DNA of 64,000 nt from an uncultured Azospirillum sp. (GCA_964530085.1 CAZGXX010000007.1:1410-65409); one strand, 5' to 3'; counted from the first letter of the stretch, positions 14,047 through 21,612 are shown. Notes: generated by a model not told the origin, from the letters alone. Made by a program: numbers and translations.

Positions 14047-14252
14047 GTGAGTGGTGAGTGGTTAGTGGTGAGTGGTATATAGCAGGGCCCGGTGCTTGGT
14101 GCCTAGTATTTCGTTTTGTCATGCCGTCTTCATGACGGCATCCGGGGTTGCGATTAGACTCGGATCCCGGCATAAAGCCGGGATGACAAAGGTGGGATAT
14201 TCTTGTACCAATCACCCACCATTCACTACTCACCACTCACCAGCCACCACCC
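14047..14252. repeat. composite palindromic element: heptamer-repeat arms flanking a TGTCAT...ATGACA hairpin core
   Basis: The left arm is about (GGTGAGT)x4 at 14047-14076. The right arm at 14213-14252 is its imperfect reverse complement (GGTGGCT GGTGAGT GGTGAGT AGTGAAT...). The core at 14117-14188 contains perfect hairpins ATGCCGTC/GACGGCAT and TCCCGGC/GCCGGGA. Confidence 0.65.
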
Positions 14253-16721: not shown

Positions 16722-18227
16722 CTAGTGATTGATCCGTTTCTTGTGCTTTTCGAAGGGGTTATTGCTTTCCTTCAGAATCAGCCGGATGGGGGTGCCGTTG
16801 AGGCCGAACGTGCTGCGTAGCCCAGCGGTGAGGTAGCGCAGGTAGGATTCGGGGAATTCCTCGGCCATGTTGCAGAACAGGTGGAACGTCGGCGGGCGCG
16901 CCTTCACCTGCGTGATATATTTGATTTTGAGGCGGCGGCCACGCACCAGCGGCGGGCTGTGATGGGCGAGGGTTTCCTCCAGCCAGCGGTTCATGGCGGC
17001 GGTGGGCACGCGGCGGTTCCACACCTCGCGCGTGGTGAGGCAGGCGTTGAGCAGCGCATCCATCCCCACCTTGTTAAGGGCAGAAACCGGTGCCACCGTA
17101 ATGCCCGCGAGCTGCGAGAGCTGCTTGCCCAGCATATACTCGATTTCCTCGAGCAGCGCTTTGCGTTCGCCGGGTTTGATGAGGTCCCACTTGTTGAGGC
17201 CGATGACGCAGGCGCGCCCCTCGCGCTCGACGAGGGAGGCCAGCGTGGCGTCCTGCTTCTCGAGCGGCGCGGTGGCATCGATGAGGATGACGACGACCTC
17301 GGCGAAGGTCAGCGCGCGGATGGAGTCGCTCACCGCCAGCTTCTCGATTTTCCCCTGCACGTTGGCGCGTTTGCGCATGCCCGCCGTGTCGTGCAGCGTG
17401 AACTTGGTGCCGTGATAGTCAAACGGAATGGCGATGGTGTCGCGCGTGATGCCCGCTTCGGGCCCGACCAGCAGGCGGTCTTCGCCGATGAGGGCGTTGA
17501 CCAGCGTGGATTTCCCCGCATTCGGGCGGCCGAGGATGACGAGGTTGATGGGTTTGGTAGAGGTGGCCGGTGGCTGGTGGCCGGTGGCCAGTGATTCTTC
17601 GTCTTGTTCGATTGCCTCTTCAAACGGTGCATCCGGCGTGACTTTCGCGGCACGTTTTGGTTTTTTCTTCCGCTTCTCTTTTGCGGCACTGGCCACTGGC
17701 CACTGGCCACCGGCCACCGCTTCTCCCTCCATCATCTCCCGCAGCACGTCGTATAAATCGCCCAGCCCCTCGCCATGCTCGGCCGAAAGCAGCACGATGG
17801 GCGTAAAACCGAGCGAGTAAATATCCCCCGCCGCGTTGGCACGGCTCGATTCCGCCTTGTTGGCGATGAGGATCATCGGCTTGTTCGACATGCGCACCAG
17901 CTTGGCAAAATGCGCGTCCATCGGCGTTACGCCCTCGCGCGCATCGATAACGAAGAGCAGGATATCGGCTTCGTCCATCGCGAGTTTGGTTTGCGCGAAC
18001 ATACGGGTGGCGAGCGCGTCGGGCGCGGCCTGCTCCATGCCTGCCGTGTCGATGAGGCGGAAGCGCAGGTCCGACAGCGAGGCATCCGCATAGCGGCGGT
18101 CACGCGTCACGCCCGGCTGGTCATCCACCAACGCCAGTCGCTTGCCGACGAGGCGGTTAAACAGCGTCGACTTGCCCACGTTCGGGCGGCCGATAATCGC
18201 GATCAGGGGGTGTGACGGAATGCTCAT
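16722..18227 (-). CDS. der: ribosome-associated GTPase Der/EngA
   Basis: Two GTPase domains (GRPNVGKSTLFN...DTAG...NKAE and GRPNAGKSTLVN...DTAG...NKWD) plus a KH-like C-terminal domain. Confidence 0.95.
   Translation of the reverse strand: MSIPSHPLIAIIGRPNVGKSTLFNRLVGKRLALVDDQPGVTRDRRYADASLSDLRFRLIDTAGMEQAAPDALATRMFAQTKLAMDEADILLFVIDAREGVTPMDAHFAKLVRMSNKPMILIANKAESSRANAAGDIYSLGFTPIVLLSAEHGEGLGDLYDVLREMMEGEAVAGGQWPVASAAKEKRKKKPKRAAKVTPDAPFEEAIEQDEESLATGHQPPATSTKPINLVILGRPNAGKSTLVNALIGEDRLLVGPEAGITRDTIAIPFDYHGTKFTLHDTAGMRKRANVQGKIEKLAVSDSIRALTFAEVVVILIDATAPLEKQDATLASLVEREGRACVIGLNKWDLIKPGERKALLEEIEYMLGKQLSQLAGITVAPVSALNKVGMDALLNACLTTREVWNRRVPTAAMNRWLEETLAHHSPPLVRGRRLKIKYITQVKARPPTFHLFCNMAEEFPESYLRYLTAGLRSTFGLNGTPIRLILKESNNPFEKHKKRINH
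17562..17719. repeat. inverted-repeat element embedded in frame in the der inter-domain linker
   Basis: The 32-nt arms at 17562-17593 (GGTGGCCGGTGGCTGGTGGCCGGTGGCCAGTG) and 17688-17719 match 29/32 as reverse complements. Each arm is 4 tandem (G/A)GTGGCC heptamers, and the spacer is 94 nt. Confidence 0.7.
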
Positions 18228-19674: not shown

Positions 19675-20568
19675 ATGAACCAGACCCCCTACACCATCGG
19701 CATCGTGCAAATGGCGATGCACCCGACCGACAGCAACGCGAATATGGAGCGCGCGATTCACTGGCTGCGCGAGGCGAAAAAGCAAGGCGTGCAGGTGGCC
19801 TGTTTGCCGGAGCTGTTCCTCTCCCCCTATTTCTGCCAGAGCGAGAACCATGATTTCTTCGCCCTCGCGGAGGCGATTCCGGGGCCATCCACGGACACGC
19901 TCGGCAAGGTGGCGAAGGAGCTCGATATGGTCATCGTCGCGAGCCTGTTCGAGCGGCGCACGGCGGGGATGTATCATAATACGACCGCGGTGATCGATGC
20001 GGACGGGACGTATCTCGGCAAATACCGCAAGATGCATATCCCGGATGATCCGCGCTTCTACGAGAAATTCTACTTCACGCCGGGTGATTTGGGCTTCAAG
20101 AATTTCGACACGAAATATGGCCGCATCGGCGTGCTGATCTGCTGGGATCAATGGTTCCCGGAAGCGGCGCGGCTGACCGCCATGCAGGGCGCGAGCGTGA
20201 TTTTCTACCCCACCGCGATCGGTTGGCACCCGGCGGAGAAAGCTGAATACGGCGAAGAGCAATGGCAGAAATGGCAGACCGTGCAGCGCGGCCACGCGGT
20301 GGCGAACAATATCTTCGTCGCCTCGCCTAACCGCATCGGGCTCGAGACGCACGGCGACAACGGCGCGCTTGAATTCTTCGGCCATAGCTTCATTTGCGAC
20401 ACCTCCGGGCGCTATATCCAGCAGGTGGATGAGAAATTCGAGGGCGTGCTCACCGCCGTCATCGACCCGAAAAAAGTCGAGAAGCAGCGCCAGTACTGGC
20501 CGTATTTCCGCGACCGCCGCATCGAGCATTACGGCGCATTAACGCAGCATCCGAGCGAAGAGGCATAA
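19675..20568 (+). CDS. aguB: N-carbamoylputrescine amidase (CN-hydrolase)
   Basis: CLPELF...YRKMHIPDDPRFYEKFYFTPGD...VLICWDQWFPEAAR, the nitrilase-superfamily E-K-C triad context. Confidence 0.9.
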   Translation: MNQTPYTIGIVQMAMHPTDSNANMERAIHWLREAKKQGVQVACLPELFLSPYFCQSENHDFFALAEAIPGPSTDTLGKVAKELDMVIVASLFERRTAGMYHNTTAVIDADGTYLGKYRKMHIPDDPRFYEKFYFTPGDLGFKNFDTKYGRIGVLICWDQWFPEAARLTAMQGASVIFYPTAIGWHPAEKAEYGEEQWQKWQTVQRGHAVANNIFVASPNRIGLETHGDNGALEFFGHSFICDTSGRYIQQVDEKFEGVLTAVIDPKKVEKQRQYWPYFRDRRIEHYGALTQHPSEEA

Positions 20569-21612
20569 ATGGACTACGCGCAATTTCAAATGCCTGCTGA
20601 ATGGGCGCCGCAGAAACGCATCTGGCTGAGCTGGCCGCACGCACGCGCCGACTGGCCGGGTAAATTCGCGCCGGTGCCGTGGGTGTTTGCCGAGATGGTG
20701 CGGGTGATTACCGGCAGTGGCCAACGCGTCGGCCTGCTGGTGAAAGACCAGAAAATCCGCGCGGAGGCGATGGAAATGCTCGACCGCAGCGGTGTATCGC
20801 TTTCGATGGTCGATATGCTCGAGGTGAAAACCAACCGCGGCTGGCTGCGTGATTGCGGCCCCATCTGGGTGAAAGACGGCATGGGCGGCTATACCGCGCT
20901 CAACTGGAAATTCACCGGCTGGGCAAAATACGCGAATCACAAACTCGATAACGACGTGCCGGATCAAATCGCGGATTTCACGAAAGACGACTCGCTGGAA
21001 CCGACCGCGAACGACAAGCATATCGTGCTCGAAGGCGGCGGGATTGAGGTGGATGGCGCAGGCAGTATTATTGTGACGGAAGAATGGTTGTTGTCGGATA
21101 CGCAAATCCGCAACAAGAAATTCACGCGGGAAGATTACGAGCTGCTGTTCGATCATTATCTCGGCGCGCCGAATGTGATCTGGCTCGGCAAAGGCATCGT
21201 CGGCGACGACACGCACGGCCATGTGGATGACATCACCCGCTTTGTCGCGCCGGGGAAAATTGTGACGGTGGTGGAGAGCGACAAGAAGGATGCGAACTAC
21301 GCGCTTTTACAAGACAATCTAAAACGCCTGCGCGCCGCGCGCGATGCGAAGGGCAAACCGTTCGAGGTGATCGAACTGCCGATGCCGCGCCCGGTGATGT
21401 TCGAAGGCCAGCGCCTGCCCGCGAGCTACGCGAACTTCCTCATCTGCAACAAAGTGGTGCTGGTGCCGGTGTTCAACGACGTGGCGGACAAGGAAGCGCT
21501 ACGCATTCTGCAGGAATGTTTCCCGAAACGCGAGGTGGTCGGCATCTATGCGCGCGACCTGGTGTGGGGGCTGGGAACGATCCACTGCCTCACGCAGCAG
21601 GAGCCGTTATAG
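20569..21612 (+). CDS. aguA: agmatine deiminase
   Basis: MPAEWAPQKRIWLSWPH...DCGPIWV...HVDD...GTIHCLTQQEP, with the catalytic Cys near the C-terminus. Confidence 0.9.
   Translation: MDYAQFQMPAEWAPQKRIWLSWPHARADWPGKFAPVPWVFAEMVRVITGSGQRVGLLVKDQKIRAEAMEMLDRSGVSLSMVDMLEVKTNRGWLRDCGPIWVKDGMGGYTALNWKFTGWAKYANHKLDNDVPDQIADFTKDDSLEPTANDKHIVLEGGGIEVDGAGSIIVTEEWLLSDTQIRNKKFTREDYELLFDHYLGAPNVIWLGKGIVGDDTHGHVDDITRFVAPGKIVTVVESDKKDANYALLQDNLKRLRAARDAKGKPFEVIELPMPRPVMFEGQRLPASYANFLICNKVVLVPVFNDVADKEALRILQECFPKREVVGIYARDLVWGLGTIHCLTQQEPL

Follow-up and report, generated by a model that had tools for sequence, protein, structure and literature searches.

Complementary heptamer arrays flank a native linker core within the der gene of an uncultured alphaproteobacterium

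The 64,000-nucleotide stretch of DNA analyzed here (the window) comes from an uncultured Azospirillum sp. and corresponds to contig C7, positions 1410-65409, of a 2.05-Mb assembly in 11 contigs with a completeness of 99.93%. Our subject is its der gene, encoding the essential GTPase Der (EngA), in which two mutually complementary arrays of a 7-nt unit (arms) lie at the borders of the linker between the first and second GTPase domains (GD1 and GD2). G000 denotes the genome under study, G001 its sister species, and other G numbers related genomes; positions are those of the window unless a contig is named. The features of the gene are as follows.

16722-18227, minus strand: der (EngA) coding sequence, 501 aa, the sole der gene of the genome, from its open reading frame (ORF) and profile matches
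17562-17593, minus strand: arm 1, at the GD2-proximal linker border (3' arm on the mRNA), CACTGGC CACCGGC CACCAGC CACCGGC CACC, residues 212-222
17687-17718, minus strand: arm 2, at the GD1-proximal linker border (5' arm on the mRNA), GGTGGCC GGTGGCC AGTGGCC AGTGGCC AGTG, residues 170-181
17594-17686, minus strand: native Der linker core, 93 nt, AAKEKRKKKPKRAAKVTPDAPFEEAIEQDEE, orthologous to the arm-less sister sequence and outside any inserted element
17546-17561, unstranded: weak outer extension of the inverted repeat, in partly conserved coding sequence (KPIN codons)
17719-17734, unstranded: partner of the weak outer extension, pairing with 17546-17561

The protein matches TIGR03594 with 511.7 bits across residues 7-486 in an NCBIfam profile search, and Pfam recognizes two MMR_HSR1 domains and a C-terminal KH_dom-like domain; remaining matches in this genome, where der is single copy, are weak GTPase paralogues. 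When Bacillus subtilis EngA is aligned with this protein, residues 6-165 and 226-485 are matched and the roughly 60 residues between them are left as a gap; in the solved protein this stretch has about 12. Both arms lie inside this gap, the GD2-side arm stopping 9 nt ahead of the conserved KPINL codons, and the GD2 P-loop begins at residue 233.

The arms, GGTGGCCGGTGGCTGGTGGCCGGTGGCCAGTG (arm 1) and CACTGGCCACTGGCCACTGGCCACCGGCCACC (arm 2), are 32 nt long each and complementary at 29 of 32 positions, all three mismatches being G.T on the plus strand and A.C on the der mRNA. Each contains the unit (G/A)GTGGCC about 4.6 times, a sub-period of 14 nt being recognizable, and Tandem Repeats Finder (TRF) reports period 7, 4.4-4.6 copies, and 88-95% matches for both. 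The two-unit pattern occurs six times in the window, always within the der arms, where 0.18 occurrences are expected and none of 100 shuffles got to six. An earlier sequence-only reading of this DNA had correctly described two heptamer-built, 29/32 reverse-complementary arms of 32 nt as repeat DNA in the variable linker of an essential gene, with the reading frame preserved (the 501-aa ORF stays open); it had placed arm 2 one base off, at 17688-17719, and accordingly counted 94 rather than 93 nt of spacer. The arms are translated in frame because the unit is stop-free in all frames and the overall change in length is divisible by three, and they would add two low-complexity peptides of about 11 residues to a tolerant linker, AVAGGQWPVASA at residues 170-181 and SLATGHQPPAT at residues 212-222. 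Together with the weak outer extension, which is probably fortuitous, the arms span 48 nt at 79% complementarity. As the unit AGTGGCC and its reverse complement (ACTGGCC) differ by one base only, the arms (17562-17718) can also be matched as direct repeats, with about 86% identity; a slippage event from one to the other would remove 125 nt and destroy the frame.

The sequence-only reading had taken the whole 158 nt, including the Lys-rich/acidic segment between the arms, for one inserted palindromic element. Alignment of the linker in der genes gathered from 40 related genomes does not bear this out. The Lys-rich/acidic centre (KEKRKKKPKRAAKVTPDAPF...) is conserved across most of the genus, and the sister species, whose Der protein is 90% identical, has no arms yet keeps the 60-nt linker core without indels, at 78% nucleotide identity versus 88% in GD2. 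The stretches that flank the core in the sister (..GDSA.. and ..DLG..ID.SKPINL) are like those of other arm-less species, and arms are also missing from most congeners. In G000, each arm stands where the sister has a short variable segment, the net length differences being +12 and +6 nt. Because G001 keeps the core without indels yet has no arms, the arms are two lineage-specific patches around a native core, and the segment is not one contiguous palindromic insertion. The core itself appears to be an old, family-level acquisition, separate from the recent arms, since the Der proteins of more distant alphaproteobacteria have short acidic linkers without it. Relatives nearer than the sister were sought among 5.8 billion proteins, where none exceeded 89% and the 90% cluster of Der has one member. 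The counter-possibility raised by the sequence-only reading itself, that all orthologues carry the same inverted repeat and that it is absent elsewhere in the genome, clearly does not hold.

TRF finds 85 arrays of period 7 or 14 in G000, with a modal length of 31 nt (40 of the 85 measure 30-32 nt), and a strict criterion leaves 37 period-7 arrays; a shuffled genome yields none, and no more than 2 are obtained for periods 8-11. Their units vary (GTGAATG, GTGAGTG, ACTGACG, AGAGTTC, AGTCTCC, and GTGAATA among others), with an RGT core common to most of them, and the arrays start and finish on RGT. The der unit contains GG runs only, and most units of the genome (GTGAATA, AGTCTCC, ACTGACG) have no G-tracts. 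Fourteen nearby inverted pairs with spacers of 7-149 nt were found, and all 14 are convergent, with a GT-rich arm first and an AC-rich arm second; the same pair architecture is seen in intergenic DNA, whatever the orientation of the genes. The der unit, with similar ends, is present at 7 or more other loci of G000, including an intergenic pair at C4:115464/115560 that is common to the sister. Single arrays show a weak trend with respect to codons, as judged from crude ORF calls, with 8 AC-type and 4 GT-type arrays before starts and 6 and 5, respectively, after stops. Within the order, RGT-core arrays are patchy (29 of 81 sampled genomes).

Arms recur at the same two borders of Der in other species. 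Complementary pairs are found there in 5 of the 19 genus genomes with a full-length linker, each with its own unit (GGTGGCC in G000, CAGTCGC in G004, CAGAGGC in G013, GGATTCG in G015, and GGGGRCY in G021), while G017 has the GD2-side arm alone, and the carriers are dispersed over the Der tree. About 68 further Der sequences at the genus level came from the search of 5.8 billion proteins, and arm-type peptides are visible in at least 13 of them; the DNA of seven such genes revealed five complementary pairs, one single GD1-side arm, and one non-complementary pair (P0067). The total is 10 Der genes with complementary pairs at the linker borders, G000 included, and further units such as AGAGTCG and CAGTCTC. 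In the three species tested (G000, G004, and G013), the der unit is a variant of AGTNGCC that is abundant in the species' own genome. The arms of P0067 (locus L191) have the units CAGAGTT and ACYGRCC and keep the usual polarity without being complementary, and the GD2-side arm is about 85% identical to that of G000 in the same register, although the proteins are only 70% identical. The arm peptides are different in every species.

Nor is der special in this respect, because the MutL, UvrC, PriA, and IscR-like genes of G000 show the same architecture, and the arrays settle in the few mutation-tolerant stretches of a 92%-coding genome. In the inter-domain linker of MutL, the native, genus-conserved motif LWGRDYLPPQHR lies between the arms; UvrC, PriA, and the C terminus of an IscR-like protein also carry array pairs, and single arrays are found within CarB, CysS, RsmB, and ThiC. 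In congeners, arms built from other units occupy these borders of MutL and UvrC, either in pairs or singly. Congener linkers also contain a second in-frame palindrome, not related to the arrays, GGGGGCATCGCCCCC in the mutL genes of G001 (L070) and G017 (L073) and GGGGGTATCACCCCC in uvrC of G007 (L113); translated as EGGIAPY/EGGITPY, it has the appearance of another small family resembling the Rickettsia palindromic elements (RPEs).

How such arrays come and go can be followed at 16 array sites compared between G000 and its sister. Four sites are conserved, and four are clean insertions, namely, three whole hairpins (63, 75, and 89 nt) and one single array of 30 nt; the two hairpins inserted into coding sequence have lengths that are multiples of three. 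Comparison of the filled and empty sites revealed no target duplication at the four insertions and no convincing target motif beyond a loose AAG/AGA tendency. Two or three sites are same-length replacements, one of them inside a coding region: at C1:501411-501439 an array stands in place of an equally long sister sequence with the peptide partly kept (LATGHWSLT versus PSGGWHLA), which, as aligned, looks like overwriting rather than insertion. One site has orthologous arrays of unlike units (CACTGGC versus CTCTGAA). The intergenic pair built from the der unit (C4:115464-115590; L125:15464-15590) has a 66-nt spacer, containing a promoter-like pair TTTACA...TAAGGT, and a right arm that are 100% identical to the sister on a background of about 89%, whereas its left arm differs by exactly two units (14 nt); this same-unit pair predates the split of the two species. 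The hairpin at the IscR site was gained, because most congeners lack it, and it is 87% identical to the PriA hairpin over 76 nt, the A-rich spacer included, with similar copies in other species. From this near-identity and the gain relative to congeners, it would follow that whole hairpins are copied to new sites, and resident arrays seem to change unit and length in place.

The two-unit difference at C4:115464 and the (7+7)x2 sub-structure of the arrays are what might be expected if slippage during replication had by itself built the der arms on the spot from native heptamers, independently of other loci. We consider this extremely unlikely, as the der unit recurs elsewhere in the genome with similar ends, whole elements including their spacers are common to several loci and species, and the net changes of der relative to the sister are not +21 nt. 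Slippage would also leave the existence of two complementary arms 93 nt apart unexplained.

The mobile hairpins bear on another possibility, that one contiguous palindromic element was inserted into der after all. A recent insertion is excluded, as the arm-less sister keeps the spacer without indels; a BLAST search with the der spacer, moreover, found no second copy in G000. In an ancient version, a hairpin with an A-rich spacer would have entered the ancestor of the genus or family, its spacer becoming the Lys-rich core and its arms being lost or rewritten. Whole hairpins with A-rich, Lys-coding spacers do insert in frame at other places (KSKQKI in the IscR-like protein, KQEN in PriA, and the gains of 63 and 75 nt versus the sister), the absence of the core from distant alphaproteobacterial Der proteins is in line with such an event, and the fixed positions and polarity of the arms, even in the non-complementary pair, fit old resident arms. 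Moreover, the linker of one further Der gene (P0065, locus L190) consists only of an arm, an A-rich spacer (KKKKKD..), and an arm, resembling the mobile IscR/PriA hairpin family, a sequence that hints that Lys-rich cores could descend from element spacers. Against this, the core resembles the element spacers in A-richness only, and the sister's flanks look like those of other arm-less species (GDSA..) and not decayed arrays. We therefore regard even an ancient contiguous insertion as unlikely.

Two further sites lie in the same window, a second convergent pair and a single array.

14047-14076, unstranded: left arm of the second convergent pair, GTGAGTG x4.3, abutting the start codon of a minus-strand gene
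14213-14250, unstranded: right arm of the second pair, CACTCAC-type x5.4, ending 2 nt ahead of the ATG of an rsmE-like gene
40244-40273 (C7 41653-41682), unstranded: single array, CTGAACT x4.3, found by TRF

The sequence-only reading had linked the der arms to this second pair through the heptamer GGTGGCT, whose complement AGCCACC is indeed present in the arm at 14213-14250. The idea of one repeat family stands as far as architecture is concerned, which the two pairs share with about 80 other arrays, but the unit is a different one. The pair is not in G001, G008, or G002, and G004 has a pair at the same site with the unit GTGAATC. Its spacer contains, at about 14115-14190, a nested, internally palindromic repeat of about 75 nt (catgccgtcttcatgacggcat...cccggcataaagccggg) that has many copies in G001, G002, and G004 and looks like a miniature inverted-repeat transposable element (MITE). 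In the spacer upstream of rsmE in G004 (L119), the 8-mer CTGTGCTA matches the intergenic DNA of arm-less species solely in reverse complement, and this single 8-mer is a weak hint that the spacer was once inverted between the arms.

Inversion could in principle concern der as well, the arms serving as recombination sites and a flip of the 93-nt spacer recoding the linker. Intragenic invertons flanked by inverted repeats are documented (PMC10028968), intergenic array pairs bracket promoter-like spacers, and the der frame would stay open for the full 501 aa with the spacer inverted. A stop-free antisense frame of 31 codons is, however, expected by chance in about 1 in 4 cases, the flipped linker (..FGFFFRFSF..) would be hydrophobic and implausible, the spacer is in the sense orientation in all species and assemblies examined, and no invertase is linked to the der arms. 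We consider an inverton in der extremely unlikely.

At the level of RNA, structure prediction gives the arm region a fold well beyond that of shuffled sequence, on both strands. For a 201-nt region, the sense RNA has a predicted energy of -95.5 kcal/mol (z -9.1) and the antisense RNA one of -108.6 kcal/mol (z -8.3). When the Der arm pairs of five species are compared, two or more Watson-Crick pair types are seen at 22 of 23 stem positions and pairing holds in 104 of 115 cells, whereas combining arms from different species gives pairing at just 41-81%. A hairpin selected in the der mRNA, whether it paused translation between the two GTPase domains, governed transcript stability or processing, or served RNase III as a site, would account for such a stable stem, for pairing kept in ten species despite sequence change, and for arms placed exactly at domain borders in Der and MutL. 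The mismatches argue otherwise, since on the sense RNA they comprise 13 A.C, 5 G.U, and 12 others of the transversion type, a spectrum opposite to that of a selected mRNA hairpin and one in which no wobble-tolerant selection is visible. In addition, the arms are missing from the sister and most congeners, the P0067 pair is non-complementary, a hairpin needs neither heptamer periodicity nor fixed polarity, and an identical architecture exists in intergenic DNA in every gene orientation. A selected mRNA hairpin is thus very unlikely in our view. A known RNA family was considered and rejected: an Rfam search of the der region gave no family at threshold, the best match, a single long-hairpin one to a plant miRNA model, reaching 37.9 bits versus a gathering score of 168.

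We also searched for an enzyme that might mobilize the arrays. The Y1 transposase associated with repetitive extragenic palindromic (REP) sequences (RAYT; PF01797) has no match in G000, while control genomes do match, and no IS110 or TnpB genes were found there, DDE families not having been searched. The sole RVT_1 match in G000, a short YIDD fragment within an hsdS-like ORF, was rejected as a credible reverse transcriptase. At its start this 631-aa ORF (C1:~19700-21600; L189:718-2613, minus strand) resembles a type I restriction S subunit, and it then runs on into the short reverse-transcriptase palm; it is probably a disrupted defence-island gene.

Our results lead us to consider it probable that the der arms are tolerated, self-propagating repeat DNA, a convergent pair of short heptamer arrays, which most likely does nothing for Der. 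The arrays would form a DNA-level class, abundant in this genome, in the genus, and in parts of the order. An array measures about 31 nt, or about four units and a closing RGT, and arrays are frequently paired, an (RGTNNNN)n arm preceding its complement. The der arms may have arrived by copying or gene conversion from other arrays, overwriting two brief stretches free of constraint on either side of the conserved Lys-rich core, and arrays would then evolve by unit slippage and replacement. In the RNA, or in DNA that has become single-stranded, pairing of the arms would produce a 32-bp stem with the linker codons in its loop; there is no sign that the cell makes use of this stem, and Der would gain nothing from the arms.

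Several observations weigh against self-propagating repeat DNA as a full account. It does not explain why complementary arms flank pre-existing DNA, why polarity is fixed even in the non-complementary P0067 pair, or why arrays stop at about 4.4 units, and neither an enzyme nor a donor was found among the families sought in G000 (RAYT/Y1, IS110, and TnpB), the reverse-transcriptase fragment being all that turned up. Tolerance alone may not explain the exact reuse of borders together with the polarity of P0067, and both could reflect old resident arms that are repeatedly rewritten or a targeted process. Such a process might be a hitherto unrecognized programmable "writer," RNA or protein templated and with a species-specific template, that installs or rewrites runs of about 31 nt of a species-typical heptamer, always with one polarity, where constrained DNA ends, for example at the starts and stops of genes or where a domain meets its linker. 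If real, it would explain together the constant length of 4.4 units, the polarity, the same-length overwriting, the reuse of sites, and the host-abundant units; we nevertheless rate it as quite unlikely, and self-propagating repeat DNA remains our preferred explanation.

On that preferred explanation, repeat DNA, besides point mutation, would shape the inter-domain linkers of essential proteins (Der, MutL, UvrC, and PriA) in a streamlined, uncultured alphaproteobacterial lineage. With 24 sequenced congeners that carry different units at the same sites, the origin and turnover of heptamer repeats become tractable by comparative genomics. In practical terms, the arrays inflate linker variability, can mislead the annotation of start codons and domains, and are likely deletion hotspots.

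The architecture described here shares features with several known systems. REP sequences and their hairpin-forming doublets (REPINs), which are associated with RAYT, are short repeats particular to a species, found singly and as inverted doublets that fold into long hairpins; the REPINs are extragenic and have their own spacer. The arrays are likewise short, species-specific, and present as inverted doublets and singlets, but G000 is without a Y1/RAYT gene, and the der arms are tandem heptamers and not individually palindromic REPs. MITEs (Correia, ERIC, BOX, and others) have terminal inverted repeats, no coding capacity of their own, and occasional in-frame intragenic copies. The complementary arms of der resemble such terminal inverted repeats (29/32), and the IscR/PriA hairpins, which share a spacer, behave as an 80-nt MITE family; unlike in MITEs, there is no target-site duplication at the four clean insertions, no partner transposase turned up among the IS110, TnpB, and Y1 families sought, and the "inside" of the der and mutL elements is host sequence. 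Of the der element, only the arms match elsewhere in the genome.

RPEs are small palindromic repeats inserted in frame into mutually unrelated housekeeping genes, where they are translated and apparently leave the protein functional; they are contiguous elements of about 150 bp in ten sequence families, each with a conserved peptide (PMC10969869). The parallel that the sequence-only reading had drawn is a fair one in behaviour, as the der arms are in frame within a housekeeping ORF and the host lineage is listed under Rickettsiales in public records. It does not extend to membership: an NCBIfam search of the linker peptide found no family at E<=1, the RPE domain included, so that an RPE domain in the Der linker was rejected, and instead of a contiguous block of about 100-150 bp absent from orthologues, der has two separate 32-nt heptamer arrays around native sequence, with a species-variable unit and no cross-species sequence or peptide family. 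Selfish DNA in coding genes, known from RPEs, would thereby be extended to a different kind of element. The short tandemly repeated repetitive (STRR) sequences of the cyanobacteria Calothrix and Anabaena and the TAACTGA repeats of Beggiatoaceae are tandem heptamers in sets of 2-6, mostly just before start codons, and phylogenetically scattered; TAACTGA is a single unit that contains stop codons and nearly always forms direct repeats, with one inverted case (PMC4679880). The arrays share the tandem heptamers and the scattered distribution, whereas paired arms around protein linkers are not described for those repeats.

The closest resemblance is to the heptameric simple sequence repeats (SSRs) of Xanthomonas (GGGAATC) and Nostoc (GGGGAYT), which are dispersed, prefer about four units, and have an unexplained function (Rehm et al. 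2015, PMC4692102), and about 70 cases of two nearby arrays in convergent orientation are known from Xanthomonas (PMC4692102). With their tandem 7-nt units, excess of period 7, genome-wide spread, length of about four units, and convergent pairs, our arrays belong to the bacterial heptameric SSR class (Mrazek 2007; Rehm 2015). They differ from the Xanthomonas and Nostoc repeats in that one genome, G000, contains many units, mostly without G-tracts, at the same four-unit length. Because the four-unit (31-nt) preference holds for G-tract-free heptamers, the G-quadruplex rationale offered for Xanthomonas and Nostoc cannot be its general cause. In contrast to those repeats, in-frame copies in housekeeping genes are frequent here, and the unit turns over between congeners at fixed sites.

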